64,000 nucleotides of DNA from Nitrosopumilaceae archaeon (GTDB taxonomy: Archaea > Thermoproteota > Nitrososphaeria > Nitrososphaerales > Nitrosopumilaceae). The notes under the pieces were generated by a model. That model made no database searches. It was given only the letters and a program-made list of their open reading frames with translations, and was not told the DNA's origin. The position numbers and the translations under genes are program-made. Of the stretch, positions 9,672 to 63,425 are shown one piece after another. Where the stretch lies: NCBI GenBank assembly GCA_965208905.1, contig OZ242365.1, positions 1,152,001 through 1,216,000 on the forward strand, in the 5' to 3' direction. The first letter of the stretch is position 1. Each line of letters begins with the position of its first letter.

Positions 9672-9769
9672 GCAGAGGTATCGAAGCCCGGTCAACCGAG
9701 AAGGACTCAAGATCATCATAAGAAATCCTTTCCTTTAGGGGTTCGTGGGTTCAAATCCCACCTTCTGCA
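9672..9769 (+). tRNA. tRNA-Leu(CAA) with ~13-nt intron at the 37/38 position (about 9712-9724)
   Basis: Acceptor GCAGAGG/CTTCTGC-A73, anticodon stem AAGGA/TCCTT interrupted after CTCAAG, long V-arm, GGTTCAAATCCC; TATA about 28 nt upstream. Confidence 0.9.
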
Positions 9770-9846
9770 CTACATCTTATTTGGTACGAATCAAATCATA
9801 GACTAAAAAATATAGATTCAATCTAACATATGATCATAATGTCATG

Positions 9847-58619: not shown

Positions 58620-59846
58620 ATGCCTGATGAGATAATTGAGATGCGAGGCCATCTTATTGATTCAATGACATTGACTCGTGTAATGAACAAGATAATTGCT
58701 CGTGGCGGAAGCTATGAATTTTTACAGTTCGATGTGGGTCTCAAAGATACCGACACAAGCTACTTGAAACTTCAGGTAACTGCAGACACCACGACACTCT
58801 TGGATGAAATATTAGACGACATACATAGTGAAGGTGCAATTGAAGTATCGCCAAAGACTGTTATGATAAAACCCGCCCCCAAAGACATGACACTTCCCAT
58901 GGACTTTTACAGCACTACAAACAACGAGACTAGAGTATTCTACGATGACCACTGGATTACGGCACAGAGACAGATGATGGACAAATGTATAGTTGTTCAA
59001 GATAAGACTGCTGTATGCACAGCCATTCGTGATGTTCGTAAGGGTGATGGAATAGTTTGTGGTGAGAATGGGGTTCGTGTAGTTGTACCACACCGCCCTC
59101 GAAAGACATCTGATACATTTACGTTCATGAATAGTGGCAGCTCTAGCGAACGTCCTACTCTGAATATTGCTCGTCGGGTAGCTCAGGATATATACAATAC
59201 AAAAAAAAGTCATGGCCGTGTTATACTGGTGGGCGGACCGGCAATTGTACATACTGGAGGCTCGCCATCTGTAGCTGGCATGATTCGTAATGGATACATA
59301 AATGGGATTTTGGCAGGAAACGCCTTGGCCGTACATGATATAGAAAGCTCCATTTATGGCACTTCATTGGGTATGCGCATAAAGGATGCTACACCCGCCA
59401 GCAAAGGCCATAGAAACCATATGGATACTGTAAATGAAGTGTTCACATATGGCTCAATATATGATATGGTTGATGCTGGCAGATTAAACAAGGGAATATT
59501 TTATGAGTGTGTTAAACATGACACACCGTTTGTATTAGCCGGCTCCATACGTGATGATGGCCCGCTCCCTGACGTTGTAACTGATGTGGTTGAGGCCCAA
59601 AAAGAGTACAAAAAGATGTTGGATGGCGCTACACTAGTTCTGATGATATCCACAATGCTTCACTCTATTGCTGTTGGCAATATGCTTCCCTCTACGGTAA
59701 AGATAATTGCTGTTGACATAAATCAATCCACTGTAACAAAATTAATTGATCGTGGTACGTGGCAGGCTATGGGTATAGTTACAGATGTCGGGGCATTTTT
59801 ACCATTGGTGGTACAGGAGCTTGAGAATCAAGAGTCTACTGTGTAG
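58620..59846 (+). CDS. LOR/SDH-domain (TIGR00300-type) ornithine cyclodeaminase-like protein
   Basis: GHLIDS, DFYSTTN, SSERP, GPAIVHTG, GNALAVHDIE, AGSIRDDGPLP, MLHSIAVGN. Confidence 0.88.
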   Translation: MPDEIIEMRGHLIDSMTLTRVMNKIIARGGSYEFLQFDVGLKDTDTSYLKLQVTADTTTLLDEILDDIHSEGAIEVSPKTVMIKPAPKDMTLPMDFYSTTNNETRVFYDDHWITAQRQMMDKCIVVQDKTAVCTAIRDVRKGDGIVCGENGVRVVVPHRPRKTSDTFTFMNSGSSSERPTLNIARRVAQDIYNTKKSHGRVILVGGPAIVHTGGSPSVAGMIRNGYINGILAGNALAVHDIESSIYGTSLGMRIKDATPASKGHRNHMDTVNEVFTYGSIYDMVDAGRLNKGIFYECVKHDTPFVLAGSIRDDGPLPDVVTDVVEAQKEYKKMLDGATLVLMISTMLHSIAVGNMLPSTVKIIAVDINQSTVTKLIDRGTWQAMGIVTDVGAFLPLVVQELENQESTV

Positions 59847-59962
59847 AAAAAAAATGGGAATTATAGTGATGGGTAGGATCATTTAATAATCCCAAACGGT
59901 GTAGTATAGCAAATTCAGATCCAAGGAGGTGAACGGGTAAACAGGATGCAAAAAATGCGGTT

Positions 59963-60112
59963 TCATATGCAAGTGTGCGATTTAATCATCAACCGAGGTG
60001 TCATGAATGTAAAAGGGAATGAAACCAATAGAATACACGATAGACACAGCCCGTGTATTTGAGGACATGCAGAATCAAACAGATGACATCCACACAGCCC
60101 TACAAGTTTCAT
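59963..60112 (-). CDS. Possible 49-aa Cys-rich hydrophobic cargo peptide
   Basis: MKLVGLCGCHLFDSACPQIHGLCLSCILLVSFPFTFMTPRLMIKSHTCI, preceded by AAGGAAGGTGA 6 nt before ATG; could be a by-product of RNA structure. Confidence 0.3.
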   Translation of the reverse strand: MKLVGLCGCHLFDSACPQIHGLCLSCILLVSFPFTFMTPRLMIKSHTCI

Positions 60113-60199
60113 GACACCTCACCTTCCTTTATATTGTATATAGTGGTTTTGATCATTTAGATACCGTAGCATTATATGTCGCGTATCGTATTGTACAAT

Positions 60200-60273
60200 G
60201 CCATGCGGGTTTAGTAGAAACTTTCACTCGTAAATTCATTAACGATATCCGTATCATGGCCTCTGCGGGTATC
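60200..60273 (+). ncRNA. Cargo pseudoknot RNA, copy 1
   Basis: TTATA at 60172; 5' GCCATG pairs with loop CATGGC (60255-60260); stems CGGGT/ACTCG and GATATCCGTA/TGCGGGTATC; G-U pairs favour the + strand. Confidence 0.7.
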
Positions 60274-60276
60274 ATA

Positions 60277-60558
60277 TCATGTCTTATAACGCATGTCCAA
60301 AACTCGCACTATACTATGTGTTATGTGCAGCATGGTTATCTTGCGTGGAGGCCGTGACTCAAATAAGGCCCTCTCAGACTCTAAATCTTTGACTTTCTGC
60401 AACAATTCCTTCAAGTATGACATGGTTATATCGTCTGCCCGTAATTGATGTGTGTCTTTTGCCTTGTTGTATGTTGTCCCTCTGAATGATGTTACTGTTT
60501 CTATGTTGTCCCTGGGATATTCTGGCAAATTCTCTAGTATGTCCCGTTCCAATGTCAT
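60277..60558 (-). CDS. 93-aa hypothetical cargo protein
   Basis: TTTATAC about 25 nt upstream of ATG (leaderless archaeal promoter geometry); amphipathic helix YLKELLQKVKDLESE. Confidence 0.6.
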   Translation of the reverse strand: MTLERDILENLPEYPRDNIETVTSFRGTTYNKAKDTHQLRADDITMSYLKELLQKVKDLESERALFESRPPRKITMLHITHSIVRVLDMRYKT

Positions 60559-60628
60559 AATGCGAGTTGTATGACAGTCTGTATAAACTCTATCAATGTT
60601 TATAATACAACCACAAGGGCAATGATAT

Positions 60629-60696
60629 GTCGCACGGGTTCATTAATGCTCGTTAAATCGTTGCTGCCGTCCATATTGCGACCTCTGTGGACGGCA
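60629..60696 (+). ncRNA. Cargo pseudoknot RNA, copy 2
   Basis: TTATA at 60600; 5' GTCGCA pairs with loop TGCGAC (60677-60682); stems CGGGT/GCTCG and TGCCGTCCATA/TGTGGACGGCA. Confidence 0.7.
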
Positions 60697-60813
60697 AAAT
60701 CTAAGATATAGCATTACATTTTTGTGATAAAGTTGGTTTACTATGTATTAACTTTGTACAACTAAATGCAAGTAAACATAGAGTTATAACCATAATCTAA
60801 GTATATACAAACA

Positions 60814-60897
60814 ATGGTATAACAGTTCCATGTTACTGCTTCAGATACCATGAGCGGTAACTGTCGCTGCCCCTGTAGATTGTGAGCTAGGGGCAGC
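60814..60897 (+). ncRNA. Two-hairpin structured leader of the cargo tRNA
   Basis: Stems GTTACTGCT/AGCGGTAAC (60832-60861) and GCTGCCCCT/AGGGGCAGC (60866-60897); ATGGTAT (60814-60820) is complementary to loop ATACCAT (60845-60851). Confidence 0.55.
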
Positions 60898-60907
60898 ATC
60901 ATCCTTT

Positions 60908-60990
60908 GTCGTGGTGGTCTAGTCTGGTAGGGCGGCGGTCTCAAAAATCGCTCATTCACAATGGCGCAGGTTCAAATCCTGTCCACGGCG
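60908..60990 (+). tRNA. IS-borne class II tRNA with anticodon CAA on a tRNA-Ser-like body (G73)
   Basis: GTCGTGG/CCACGGC-G acceptor; D-arm GTCTAGTCTGGTAGGGC; GCGGT-CTCAAAA-ATCGC; V-arm CATT-CAC-AATG; GCAGG-TTCAAAT-CCTGT. Confidence 0.88.
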
Positions 60991-61000
60991 CACTAAACAT

Positions 61001-61933
61001 CTAACTTATCAGTTGCTCATATGTCAACCGCTTGCCAATCATGCCCCTTGCCAAACTTATCATCATGTCTTCAGTGTCTAGATTTCGTATGTTTAAACGG
61101 CCAGCAAACTCATTGACATACCTGTGCAGGTGCTTTGCCGACACATGATGGAATGTACCGTAATAGCCACGCTTTAACAAAGCCCAAAAGGATTCTATGC
61201 CGTTAGTGTGCGCCATGCCGTTGACATATTGACTTACCGAATGATTAACCACTTCGTGATTTGGTAAACTCTTGTATGCTCTATGCTCATCCGTATAATG
61301 GGTACTGCCCGACTTGACATTGTCTTTAATAAATTTGCCAAGTCGAGCAGATGTGGTCTCATTTACGGGTTCGGCTCTTATATCACCTGTCTTTCTATCT
61401 TTGATACCTACAACTGCGGTTTTGTTTGCACCGCCTTGACTGTGGGGTTGTTTCTTTGTACTGTGTTTGTTCTTTTCCTTGCCACCGATATAGGTCTCAT
61501 CTATTTCGACTGGACCTTCCAGTTTGTCAATACCTGCCAATGTTTGCCATGATTCACGCAAACGCTGAACCATGAACCATGCTGAACTTTGGGATATGCC
61601 TAAGTCTCTGTGTAGTTTCATTGATGATATACCCTTGACATTAGTCATAAACTGGTATGTTGCGATTGCCCAATGCTGGTATGATATTTTGGATTGTTGC
61701 ATTACAGTGCCGACTTTGACTGAAAAATACGTTTTGCACTTACTACAATAGTATGGCATCTTTGGATGTTTACATTCTATGGTATCATCATGTTTGCAGT
61801 TGGGACATTTACGGCCATCTCTCCATATGTGGCTTTCAAACCACTTCATGGATGTATGATTGTCTGGAAACATCTTTAGTAAATCTATTAGTGTGATTCC
61901 TTCCCTGTGTGATTTGCCTGGTGCTTGTTGCAT
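61001..61933 (-). CDS. IS1595-family (ISXO2-like) DDE transposase
   Basis: CPNC...YYCSKC Zn finger, GISSMKLHRDLG HTH, EIDETYIGG, TDE, HTNGIESFW; TTTATAT about 25 nt before the ATG at 61933. Confidence 0.95.
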   Translation of the reverse strand: MQQAPGKSHREGITLIDLLKMFPDNHTSMKWFESHIWRDGRKCPNCKHDDTIECKHPKMPYYCSKCKTYFSVKVGTVMQQSKISYQHWAIATYQFMTNVKGISSMKLHRDLGISQSSAWFMVQRLRESWQTLAGIDKLEGPVEIDETYIGGKEKNKHSTKKQPHSQGGANKTAVVGIKDRKTGDIRAEPVNETTSARLGKFIKDNVKSGSTHYTDEHRAYKSLPNHEVVNHSVSQYVNGMAHTNGIESFWALLKRGYYGTFHHVSAKHLHRYVNEFAGRLNIRNLDTEDMMISLARGMIGKRLTYEQLIS

Positions 61934-62033
61934 GTAATACCTTAGATTCATAGGGCATATAAATCCTACCCATCACTATAATTCCCAAAAAAATCCTCAA
62001 CACCAACGATATAATTTGAACATAGATGCAATT

Positions 62034-63425
62034 TTACTCTTTTAATAACTCTCCAAGTATGCGTAAAACCTCCTGTGGGTCGGCAGCACCACGAGTCTCT
62101 CTCATTATGATGCCTACTAAATAATTGATGGCCGGCGGATTTATACGAGCCTCATGCGCAGCCTGAGGCTCCTTCTGTAATGTGTCTGATATTATATCGT
62201 ATAATTTGGAGGTATCATAACTACTCGCGTCAAGTATGTCATCTATGTCTCCACCTTTTTTTGCTATTTTGTATAATACATCCTTGGCTACGGCCCTTGT
62301 AATTTTATTACTCTTTATCAACGTGGCAATCTTTGATAGATGCTCTGCAGTAATCTGTGAGGCGGCACGTTTCTCCCGAGTATCCATAACCCCCATAAAA
62401 TCAGTGGTTAGAATATTGGCTATTATTAAAGCCGTCTCCGGCGTTAGAGCCTCTTCGAATAAGCGACAACAACGTGTATCTGATATGAGCACATTGGCTA
62501 CCTGCGGTTTTATATTATACTGTTTGATGTATCGCTCCCGACGCGCTGTGGTACTCTCGGGCATATTGGCGGATATCTCTTTTATTGTATCATCATCTAA
62601 ATCCACCCAAGGAATATCTGCCTCTAAAAAGTACCTATAGTCAAGCTCTGCCTCCTTTGTACGAGACGATATTGTAATTCGACGGCGCTCGTCCCAATGC
62701 CGTGTCTCTTGTTGTATTGTAATGTTGTTCTCGTATAGACTGCTCTGTCGTGTTAGTTCATAATGTAGGGCTTTTTCCAGATCGTGGAATGAGTTGATGT
62801 TTTTAATCTCTACTTTGTTTCCGTCATGCACTGAAACATTTCCATCGGCGCGCATAGCACCATCCAGATACGGGTCTGCTATGTCTAGATTCTTTATGGT
62901 GTCTGCCAGCATATTCATAAAACTGCGTGCCTGTCGCGGACTGTCAAAGTCCGGCTCAGTTACAATCTCTACTAGTGGAACACCTGCCCTGTTGTAATCC
63001 ACAAGCGTTGTCTGGCGACCATCGTTGCCTCCTTCATATGTGAGCCTACCGGGATCCTCCTCCAACTGTATACGTCTGATGCGAATCTCTGTACCATCAT
63101 CTGTATTTACTGTGCCGTTACCGCCTATACTGGTGTGACCATATGCATCAAACTGTGTTATTTGATAGTTCTTTGGCAGGTCGGGATAAAAGTAGTTCTT
63201 GCGAAAGAAGGCCAGACTCTCTGGTGTAGTGCAGTTTAGTGACATGGCCAGAGCAACTCCATGTCGTACTGCCTCTGAGTTTAGCAAAGGCAGCGTACCG
63301 GGCAGTCCCAAACATATGGGACATGTATTGGAGTTTGGTGCCATACCTCTGTAGTTGGCCTTGCATGGACAGAACAACTTTGACTGTAATCGGGTCAACT
63401 GACAGTGTATCTCTAGTCCTATTAT
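62034..63425 (-). CDS. gatB: Asp/Glu-tRNA amidotransferase subunit B (probable ATA start)
   Basis: IGLEIHCQL, PGTLP, RKNYFYPDLPKNYQITQ, DYNRAGVPLVEIVTEPD; conserved N-terminus extends upstream of the TTG called in the ORF track. Confidence 0.95.
   Translation of the reverse strand: MIGLEIHCQLTRLQSKLFCPCKANYRGMAPNSNTCPICLGLPGTLPLLNSEAVRHGVALAMSLNCTTPESLAFFRKNYFYPDLPKNYQITQFDAYGHTSIGGNGTVNTDDGTEIRIRRIQLEEDPGRLTYEGGNDGRQTTLVDYNRAGVPLVEIVTEPDFDSPRQARSFMNMLADTIKNLDIADPYLDGAMRADGNVSVHDGNKVEIKNINSFHDLEKALHYELTRQSSLYENNITIQQETRHWDERRRITISSRTKEAELDYRYFLEADIPWVDLDDDTIKEISANMPESTTARRERYIKQYNIKPQVANVLISDTRCCRLFEEALTPETALIIANILTTDFMGVMDTREKRAASQITAEHLSKIATLIKSNKITRAVAKDVLYKIAKKGGDIDDILDASSYDTSKLYDIISDTLQKEPQAAHEARINPPAINYLVGIIMRETRGAADPQEVLRILGELLKE

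Follow-up and report, generated by a model that had tools for sequence, protein, structure and literature searches.

Transfer RNAs (tRNAs) whose body and anticodon point to different amino acids are rare in nature, and genetic-code change and deliberate mistranslation draw on them; descriptions have so far come from nematodes, some bacteria and yeasts. The locus considered here brings in an archaeal family, with one member placed on a just-duplicated transposon. It was found in a stretch of 64,000 nucleotides (nt) from a Nitrosopumilaceae archaeon (contig OZ242365.1), called the window below, which corresponds to genome bases 1152001-1216000 of a single-contig genome of 2,214,775 bases; positions given without the word genome are those of the window. 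A complete transposon of the IS1595 insertion sequence (IS) family occupies 59856-61986 and holds, in a cargo of mostly RNA genes, a class II tRNA with a leucine anticodon on a serine-type body. Carriage on a transposon would offer a codon-reinterpreting tRNA a route to spread within and between genomes, and the matching of an upstream hairpin loop to the variable arm suggests a built-in restraint on the feature that the synthetase reads. The locus could serve as a small system for asking how cells tolerate, regulate and exploit miscoding tRNAs.

Bacterial allo-tRNAs (Mukai et al. 2017, as summarised in the review PMC7609411) are described there as having serine identity and mostly non-serine anticodons, including UAU and those of leucine. 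In the same account two of them, expressed in E. coli, inserted serine at leucine codons, and a link with transposons or toxin-antitoxin (TA) systems is suggested for some. The family studied here resembles them in combining serine identity elements with non-serine anticodons. Allo-tRNAs, in contrast, are bacterial and have an 8/4 or 9/3 arrangement of acceptor and T-arm, whereas the tRNA of the transposon is archaeal, keeps the 7/5 arrangement with no insertions in those stems and has an antisense leader. The nev-tRNAs of nematodes are reported in PMC3333845 as lineage-restricted, supernumerary class II tRNAs with the glycine anticodon CCC or the isoleucine anticodon UAU, charged with leucine as their body dictates. 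Lineage restriction, supernumerary status, class II structure and the disagreement of anticodon and body are all shared with the present tRNAs; however, nev-tRNAs come from tRNA-Leu, carry A73 and are leucylated, whereas those studied here are serine-type with G73, archaeal and in one case borne on a transposon. Variants of tRNA-Ser which place serine at a phenylalanine or leucine codon are presented for human tRNA-Ser(AGA) G35A (PMC12993449) and for the CUG-Ser yeasts (PMC6041473). A G35A change is also seen here, relative to the host tRNA-Ser(CGA), but the human and yeast variants are chromosomal alleles or fixed code changes, eukaryotic, immobile and without a dedicated leader. In type I TA systems with antisense RNA and in type III ToxIN systems with pseudoknot antitoxins, a structured RNA lies beside a harmful gene product on mobile DNA. 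The present locus has in common with them a hairpin loop with a short antisense seed; it is unlike them in that no protein toxin can be recognised, the part of harmful partner would fall to the tRNA, and the 93-amino-acid (93-aa) protein encoded in the cargo matches no TA or defence family.

Target site duplications (TSDs) of 8 bp are typical of the IS1595 family, whose members can reportedly carry passenger genes, as Siguier, Gagnevin and Chandler are said to have noted in 2009. The studied element has the usual traits of such passenger-bearing ISs, that is an ISXO2-like DDE domain, short terminal inverted repeats (TIRs), the 8-bp TSD and extra genes between one end and the transposase; unlike the usual passengers, its cargo consists for the most part of RNA genes without a protein product (two for small RNAs and one for a tRNA preceded by a long leader). 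The left TIR of 24 bp (59856-59879, plus strand) is 100% complementary to the right TIR (61963-61986, minus strand), and the inverted-repeat search returned 25 nt (59855-59879 against 61963-61987), which is the TIR with one base of the TSD. The duplicated 8-bp sequence AAAAAAAT is read in the flanks at 59848-59855 and at 61987-61994. The transposase of 316 aa (61001-61951, minus strand) matches the whole of PF12762, DDE_Tnp_IS1595 (profile 1-153 of 153, E 2.2e-40, 138.6 bits with a cut-off of 27), and its N-terminus scores 20.1 bits against the zinc ribbon PF12760 (cut-off 25.4). When the genome was searched with the whole element 12 matches were obtained, two of them full length, the others being related transposase genes with 75-86% DNA identity and one cargo-like stretch. 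The second full copy lies at genome 675271-677401, 537 kb away, has its own 8-bp TSD AAAATTAT and differs from the first at one of 2131 bases, located in the right TIR. Because of the perfect TIRs, the TSDs, the intact transposase domain and the near-identical second copy, the element is complete and has moved recently; it is active or recently active. Contig depth over the element was about 2-2.5 times that of its flanks in three of four runs and equal to it in the fourth (one sample), and in the contigs of these four runs no empty-site joint was found, the loose ends being flanks of the two known copies only. An earlier note made from the sequence of the window had already recognised the perfect 24-bp TIRs, the 8-bp TSD and the intact transposase, all of which were confirmed. 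The parts also follow each other as it described them: TIR, fold-back region with a 49-aa open reading frame (ORF), small RNA 1, 93-aa ORF, small RNA 2, leader with tRNA, transposase, TIR.

The tRNA lies at 60908-60990 on the plus strand, with the anticodon CAA at 60942-60944 and the discriminator base G73 at 60990. It was detected with Infernal and with ARAGORN, the latter calling it tRNA-Leu(CAA). Against the Rfam model RF00005 it scores 47.9 bits (gathering threshold 29) over the full model (1-71 of 71) with a 13-nt insertion in the variable region, and this value lies within the range of the canonical class II tRNAs of the host (39.9-58.8 bits). The gene is extra, since the host's own genes make up a complete leucine set: CAG, TAG, GAG, CAA interrupted by one intron (9672-9770) and TAA with two introns (genome ~2088745-2088860). 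The body is another matter. G73 is shared with all four aligned host tRNA-Ser, whereas the four aligned host tRNA-Leu and Leu(TAA) have A73. Identity reaches 74.7-75.0% to host Ser(CGA) and Ser(GCT) and 64.7% to Ser(TGA), against 60.0-63.5% to the three intron-less tRNA-Leu; the tRNA is therefore closer to two of the three intron-less host tRNA-Ser than to tRNA-Leu, which together with G73 separates it from the nev-tRNA pattern. The first three acceptor pairs and the anticodon stem are those of host tRNA-Ser(CGA) except for C40U, and the anticodon differs from it by G35A. In the variable arm one unpaired base precedes the stem and two follow it, as in the three intron-less host tRNA-Ser (CGA, TGA, GCT), while three follow it in host tRNA-Leu. 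The D-arm is of serine type as well. Its pattern was scanned for in one genome per prokaryote species and in viral contigs, where it was present in at least 123 loci with at least 128 occurrences; among the matches listed 73 lie in archaeal and viral class II tRNAs, of which 69 are tRNA-Ser and none is an ordinary tRNA-Leu, the four exceptions being two genes of genome G125 and one of G135 (both from the genus considered below) and one gene of a Woesearchaeota contig that was probably mis-called. Outside the genus the D-arm pattern alone does not define a family; it is common in archaeal tRNA-Ser, tRNA-Gly and tRNA-Val. As regards recognition, PMC9976931 presents G73 as a strong element for bacterial and archaeal seryl-tRNA synthetase (SerRS), the G73 of Haloferax tRNA-Ser as an antideterminant for leucyl-tRNA synthetase (LeuRS), and the anticodon as not read by SerRS, and PMC3333845 describes A73 as conserved in tRNA-Leu. 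The chimeric tRNA of the earlier note is thus borne out as a leucine anticodon CAA on a serine-type body with G73.

Relatives of this tRNA were found by BLAST with the tRNA of the element and then with a covariance model built from the tRNA only (R2). Related class II genes occur in six of the ten genomes of the genus (G000, G018, G065, G113, G125 and G135). The anticodon CAA is found in this element and in G135; TAA in G018, in G125 and in one identical gene of G065 and G135; TAT in three genes of G125; GAT in G113 and in an inverted pair of G135; CCT in G065; and AAG in G125. None of the 13 distinct genes has a serine anticodon, the anticodons being those of leucine, isoleucine and arginine. 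All have G73 except two G125 genes (TAT and AAG) with A73, and every member keeps a canonical 7-nt anticodon loop with U33 and a purine at 37; A35 is present in all ten genes of alignment A5. Close paralogs may differ in anticodon, as the CAA and TAA genes (87% identity) or the TAA and TAT genes (83.5%) do. A class I tRNA-Ile(GAT) 100% identical to that of the own genome was present in four of five genomes checked, with partial matches only in G018. The exact D-arm pattern was met in four of 301 genomes of the taxonomic family, all from this genus, the only one in which the tRNA family was found, and in a metagenome collection the D-arm pattern combined with A35 gave three matches, all of them class I tRNA-Met. 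Not one of the relatives' genes adjoins an IS1595 transposase, the neighbours ranging from IS5-type transposases to ribosomal protein L2, HemD and signal recognition particle (SRP) RNA. Since the family genes of the relatives lie apart from IS1595 transposases, the transposon has evidently captured a member of a pre-existing tRNA family. No description of such tRNAs in Thaumarchaeota, of an IS with tRNA and small-RNA cargo, or of a leader antisense to a variable arm was found in open-access papers, supplements excluded.

Some single members of this family deserve a remark. About 160 nt upstream of the variant tRNA(TAA) of G018, locus L015 (contig C24, 307-329, minus strand) contains a 23-nt fragment 96% identical to the 3' part of the element's tRNA (T-arm and acceptor), which could be a recombination scar or an attachment-site repeat. 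The class II gene with the arginine anticodon CCT and G73 (L229) lies in G065 at C1:1344738-1344821. The AAG gene with A73 (L255, G125 at C1:1908149-1908233) is preceded by a direct copy of its own variable arm, and about 800 nt from the A73 class II tRNA(TAT) of G125 an archaeal SRP RNA is encoded (L056, 379-689; 96.8 bits with a gathering threshold of 96.5).

The leader of the element's tRNA is the next peculiarity of the locus. A TATATA box at 60802-60807 is followed by a structured leader of about 75 nt, the whole unit covering 60802-60907 on the plus strand (folding z-score -2.5). The earlier note had placed a TTATA box 28-30 nt upstream of each RNA unit, as in the host tRNA-Leu promoter; the two small RNAs have their boxes at this distance, and upstream of the tRNA TATA-like boxes stand only at -106 and -124 from the mature 5' end (the host tRNA-Leu box is at -28). 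Within the leader a GC-rich hairpin of 9 bp (60866-60874 with 60889-60897) closes a 14-nt loop, in which 60879-60885 (ATTGTGA) complements 60956-60962 of the variable arm; a further leader stretch, 60850-60856, complements tRNA positions 60949-60955. In the main subgroup of the family each member has an upstream hairpin whose loop carries an exact complement of its own variable arm (tRNA positions 44-55). For eight distinct genes the 100 nt upstream were searched for the longest exact complement to the tRNA, and in all eight the longest or joint-longest one falls on the variable arm. It measures 7 nt in this element, 8 nt in the G135 CAA and G113 GAT genes, 9 nt in G018 TAA and G125 TATa, and 10 nt in G125 TAA, G125 TATb and the TAA gene common to G065 and G135. 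The variable arms all differ, and between G125 TAA and TATb two adjacent arm bases are changed and the loops are changed to match. In an 8x8 matrix of duplex energies, composed of seven of these eight genes and G125_TATc, whose match is a direct repeat, the cognate upstream region was the best of eight for seven of the eight variable arms, with a mean of -21.0 kcal/mol for cognate against -14.6 kcal/mol for non-cognate pairs (standard deviation 3.6). The TAA gene of G065 and G135 came to light with the tRNA-only model when the rule was already formulated, and obeys it, which makes it a small replication. Shuffles of single genes give modest results (6 to 277 of 1000 reach the observed length), and the case rests on position and covariation. 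The Arg(CCT) gene has an interrupted 9-of-10 match only, outside the hairpin.

Other explanations for the leader loops were considered as well. A box C/D or H/ACA guide role was rejected, with no CUGA box seen by eye after the complements and with the complements lying in a terminal loop; for a bulge-helix-bulge splicing motif no supporting bulges were seen, without a formal test. The covariance model of the small RNAs (R1, described below) found no match in the hairpins upstream of the family tRNAs, and homology between the two is an impression only.

The best reading of these observations, to which a probability of roughly 0.4 is given, is that of a mobile, antisense-restrained, serine-inserting tRNA. 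The tRNA unit would be the working part of the cargo. Once transcribed, the tRNA is proposed to be recognised by SerRS because of its long variable arm of serine geometry and G73, and to be rejected by LeuRS because G73 is an antideterminant. Serine would then be inserted at UUG leucine codons in competition with the intron-containing host tRNA-Leu(CAA); in 609 long ORFs UUG accounts for 20% of the leucine codons and, among all codons, for 16.1 per 1000. The loop of the leader hairpin, antisense to the variable arm and so to the main handle of the synthetase, would hold the precursor inactive, and the leader, once cut off by RNase P, could act in trans by binding the mature tRNA and so restrict its charging. 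Miscoding would thereby be conditional rather than constitutive. Addiction, translation manipulation and an anti-virus role had been put forward in the earlier note; as far as anatomy can tell, translation manipulation is the option that it favours.

Several observations weigh against such a function. G30-C40 is listed in PMC9976931 as a weaker serine determinant, and the 30-40 pair of the element's tRNA is G-U where host Ser(CGA) has G-C; in the identity table of that paper the archaeal row is empty for serine, the rules of archaeal SerRS being only partly known. Further G-U pairs (two in the D-stem, one in the T-stem) are compatible with a gene that could be decaying. The element's own genes use TTG freely (6 of the 11 leucine codons of the 93-aa gene, 5 of the 19 of the transposase; genome-wide share 20%), which would be odd if UUG decoding suffered from the tRNA. 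The copy in the transposon is also the weakest leader case: its 7-nt complement is matched by 277 of 1000 shuffled upstream regions, the 1028-nt cargo contains seven such 7-mers against the tRNA, and for its leader the cognate variable arm ranks third of eight. Among eight canonical control tRNAs two have their best match in the variable arm, at the chance-level length of 6 nt, and one has a 9-nt match to the anticodon arm. A second subgroup (the G125 TAT and AAG genes with A73 and the GAT pair of G135) has no antisense loop, and two of its four members (G125 TATc and AAG) have upstream direct repeats of the variable arm instead. Finally, in three family members a TATA-like box at -26/-27 lies between hairpin and tRNA, two of them having another about 140 nt upstream, and because of the intervening box the hairpin of these three may be a separate transcript.

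A rival explanation is that the cargo is hitch-hiking junk, namely host or mobile DNA picked up by chance, with an inactive or decaying tRNA and no use for the element. It is rather unlikely, even though every cargo family is also found outside IS1595 elements, IS1595 relatives swap their cargo freely, several G-U pairs occur in the tRNA stems, the 7-nt leader complement taken alone is at chance, and the near-identity of the two copies makes them uninformative on selection. Decayed DNA would hardly be expected to hold a tRNA with a score inside the host class II range, two small RNAs which keep every pair of a three-helix pseudoknot, a 93-aa gene under purifying selection relative to its paralog, and, for every unit, a promoter-like box where one would be expected. 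A genuine extra leucine tRNA, on the other hand, would explain the anticodon CAA, and could boost UUG decoding, for example for the TTG-rich 93-aa gene, whose TTG share of 6 of 11 leucines stands against 2 of 10 in the paralog and 20% genome-wide. This account is made very improbable by G73 in place of A73, by the serine-type geometry of D-arm and variable arm, by the 60-63.5% identity to intron-less host tRNA-Leu and by the tRNA-Leu(CAA) and (TAA) which the host already has, as well as by the role of G73 as antideterminant for an archaeal LeuRS described in PMC9976931.

Two further alternatives take the leader seriously and change the task of the tRNA. It may be a tRNA-shaped RNA acting outside decoding, as an RNase P/RNase Z signal releasing the leader, a decoy for an anticodon nuclease or a donor of amino acids away from the ribosome. 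In favour of this are the length and the structure of the leader with its specific fit to the tRNA body; in addition, the family is found partly beside transposases and defence-type genes, and the allo-tRNA literature, as reviewed in PMC7609411, raises transposon or TA links for members which do not translate. Such a role is nevertheless quite improbable given the canonical anticodon loop with U33 and purine 37 in all members and the non-random anticodons (A35 in all ten genes of A5, serine never), which argue for selection on decoding or on anticodon recognition. The tRNA unit may also be an all-RNA TA-like pair, an idea that the analysts hold to be distinctly unlikely. The toxin would be the long-lived, serine-charged tRNA miscoding leucine, isoleucine or arginine codons, and the antitoxin a shorter-lived leader or hairpin RNA masking the variable arm from SerRS; loss of the locus or a shut-off of transcription, for example by virus infection, would free the tRNA and poison translation. 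The pseudoknot RNAs would be related regulators with the common plan of a GC hairpin whose loop pairs elsewhere. If true, the transposon would carry an addiction or abortive-infection device. The remaining cargo is described in the following paragraphs.

The two pseudoknot RNAs postulated in the earlier note are real and covarying. RNA1 (60196-60278, plus strand; 99.3 bits with model R1) is formed by the helices P1 (60200-60205/60255-60260), P3 (60206-60210/60226-60230) and P2 (60244-60251/60266-60273), and RNA2 (60625-60701, plus strand; 83.8 bits) by P1 (60629-60634/60677-60682), P3 (60635-60639/60648-60652) and P2 (60666-60673/60688-60695), with a run of five T at 60719-60723 downstream. 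Measured from the first base of P1, a TATA-like box begins at -28 in RNA1 and lies at -30 to -28 in RNA2. A third copy adjoins the chromosomal paralog of the 93-aa gene and is divergent from it like RNA2. In the alignment of the three the fold, in which P1 and P2 cross and the P3 hairpin stands inside P1, is fully kept: 56 of 56 pair cells are paired and eight of 19 pairs show compensatory changes on both sides, while in none of the six slid controls did any pair change on both sides, and no more than 31-48% of their cells were paired. The plus strand alone accommodates three G-U pairs that the third copy has in P2 and a G-U pair conserved in P3, which favours RNA over a DNA structure. RNA1 and RNA2 are thus real and related to each other. 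Rfam contains no match for them, and cmscan of 59000-63000 with E up to 1 returned only the tRNA.

With R1 a further unit was found in the own genome (1726929-1727000, 37.9 bits), another in G135 (32.9 bits), and core-only matches in G065 and G135 (20.7 bits). In a sample of 151 genomes of the taxonomic family, with E up to 0.001, the own genome and G135 alone were positive and none of the 26 other genera was. A TATA-like hexamer precedes the first base of P1 by 26-30 nt in seven of seven units. As neighbours, the G135 units have a Panacea-domain protein, a TnpB-type gene and an IS6-type transposase, the G065 unit an IS66 transposase, and the fourth unit of the own genome a nucleotidyltransferase and a type II restriction-enzyme-like ORF cut by an IS3-type element; the locus of the 93-aa paralog is the exception, being surrounded by binding-protein and surface-protein genes. 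Together with the 93-aa protein, the two pseudoknot RNAs make up a second module that was captured along with the tRNA and resembles a chromosomal pair; since its relatives adjoin TA, restriction and transposase genes, a regulatory or defence-linked role is plausible for it. A new family of pseudoknotted small RNAs is recognised here, one that marks mobile and defence islands in these archaea. The restriction-enzyme-like ORF directly downstream of the fourth unit (L075, 1605-2141; genome ~1727033-1727569) matches REase_II in PADLOC with E 4.9e-7 and is shortened by the IS3-type insertion, and two nucleotidyltransferase paralogs lie upstream. The G135 unit was considered as a TnpB guide RNA and rejected, as it stands 1.6 kb upstream of tnpB and on the wrong side. 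When targets of the small-RNA loops were sought in the whole genome, only chance-level 10-13-mers emerged besides the loops' own antisense loci. The RNA2 loop 60677-60687 complements bases 2-11 of host tRNA-Ser(TGA) over 10 nt (genome 1005033-1005042), which is only a lead because such 10-mers occur genome-wide at chance number; likewise, the CCUCUG conserved in the small RNAs is complementary to GCAGAGG, with which host tRNA-Ser(TGA) and tRNA-Leu(CAA) begin.

The orphan 93-aa protein is encoded at 60277-60558 on the minus strand, convergent with RNA1 and divergent from RNA2. Its chromosomal paralog (97 aa, genome 2111558-2111833) has 66% protein identity (E 5e-47), and the block of the 93-aa gene with RNA2 is about 70% identical in DNA to the corresponding block of the paralog. 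The ratio of non-synonymous to synonymous substitution rates (dN/dS) between the two genes is 0.185, and because of this value the ORF is regarded as a real gene under purifying selection relative to the paralog. It is a protein of narrow distribution, with three clusters among 5.8 billion proteins. In 1.8 billion representatives, with E up to 0.001, two matches were obtained, its own cluster and a 500-aa secretin-N repeat protein; the latter was rejected as a relative, its E of 6.7e-7 being summed over six repeats and a weak lead at most. An 89%-identical protein (P0002) is encoded on a 658-bp contig. Among 301 genomes of the taxonomic family the own genome and one weak match (E 0.0028, 33% identity) were found. 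No match was obtained in Pfam with E up to 1 or in PADLOC, the best PDB profile had E 0.58, and among PHROGs one family of unknown function was hit with E 8.2e-4. The AlphaFold model, with pLDDT 52.4 and pTM 0.29, is too poor to be of use, and the best score in the protein atlas, 0.84, is below the useful range. For the cargo as a whole no related loci were found in metagenome or genome contig collections, and against the 301 genomes its DNA matched in the tRNA part only (the best two candidates per genome were scored).

Two sibling elements of the same genome throw light on the place where the cargo resides. Sibling A (genome 1043578-1046414; 8-bp TSD AAAATTAT) and sibling B (genome 1770047-1772736; 8-bp TSD CAATTTTA) are full elements whose transposases have 77% and 75% protein identity, respectively, to that of the studied element. 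Both share its end motif, and in each of them a DNA methyltransferase gene occupies the interval from one end to the transposase stop codon. These domain names are motifs read in the translations, not results of a profile search. The methyltransferase of sibling A is accompanied by a membrane-like ORF of 95 aa; that of sibling B, a fusion with an HNH domain, is interrupted at a run of 12 G and reads as two ORFs, and may be a phase-variable or a broken gene. Since RNA genes in the studied element and protein cargo in the siblings occupy one and the same slot, which reaches from the left end to where the transposase gene has its 3' end, this slot is a bay for exchangeable passengers. In a paper on the thaumarchaeal mobilome (PMC6563490) IS-like transposons are mentioned as carrying one or two genes. 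The earlier note had held that its idea of an RNA module would fall if other copies lacked the cargo or if the cargo were captured host DNA. The siblings do lack it, with the methyltransferase in its place. Capture is true in part, as the pseudoknot RNA, the 93-aa gene and the odd tRNA all have families outside IS1595 elements in the same genome or genus; the captured pieces are themselves unusual and several of them lie in mobile or defence contexts. What stood is a cargo of mostly RNA genes with their own promoters and a chimeric tRNA; that this cargo is unique to the element did not.

The part of the cargo next to the left TIR is a fold-back at 59995-60120, with perfect 13-bp arms (59995-60007 and 60108-60120) around 100 nt as returned by the inverted-repeat search. 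It is strongly structured on both strands, with z-scores of -4.9 (plus) and -5.6 (minus) and none of 200 shuffles as good. Two predicted ORFs overlap it, one of 49 aa at 59963-60112 on the minus strand and one of 31 aa at 60019-60114 on the plus strand; no family hits were obtained here, and the 49-aa ORF has no relatives.

Some observations on host tRNA genes and on other ISs may be added. The 18-nt intron of host tRNA-Leu(CAA) (9672-9770) lies next to the anticodon, and ARAGORN run without the intron option reports this gene as tRNA-??? with a 4-base anticodon. The canonical tRNA-Leu(GAG) at genome 965877-965961 has, 40 nt upstream, an exact 9-nt complement to its own anticodon arm (only 12 of 1000 shuffles as good). 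At genome 1664528-1664679 two adjacent tRNA-like genes score 38.7 and 37.9 bits, with the ARAGORN anticodons ACT and, depending on the intron setting, TCG or CGG; this is maybe another mobile tRNA pair. The end motif GGGAATTATATAC, with one mismatch allowed, has 39 plus-strand occurrences in the genome, and its complement has 40. Many pairs of the motif are about 1.47 kb apart with 8-bp-like flanks, for instance at genome 33496-34967, 102957-104422 and 339644-341109, and they represent an abundant IS population which has termini in common with the studied element but not its transposase.

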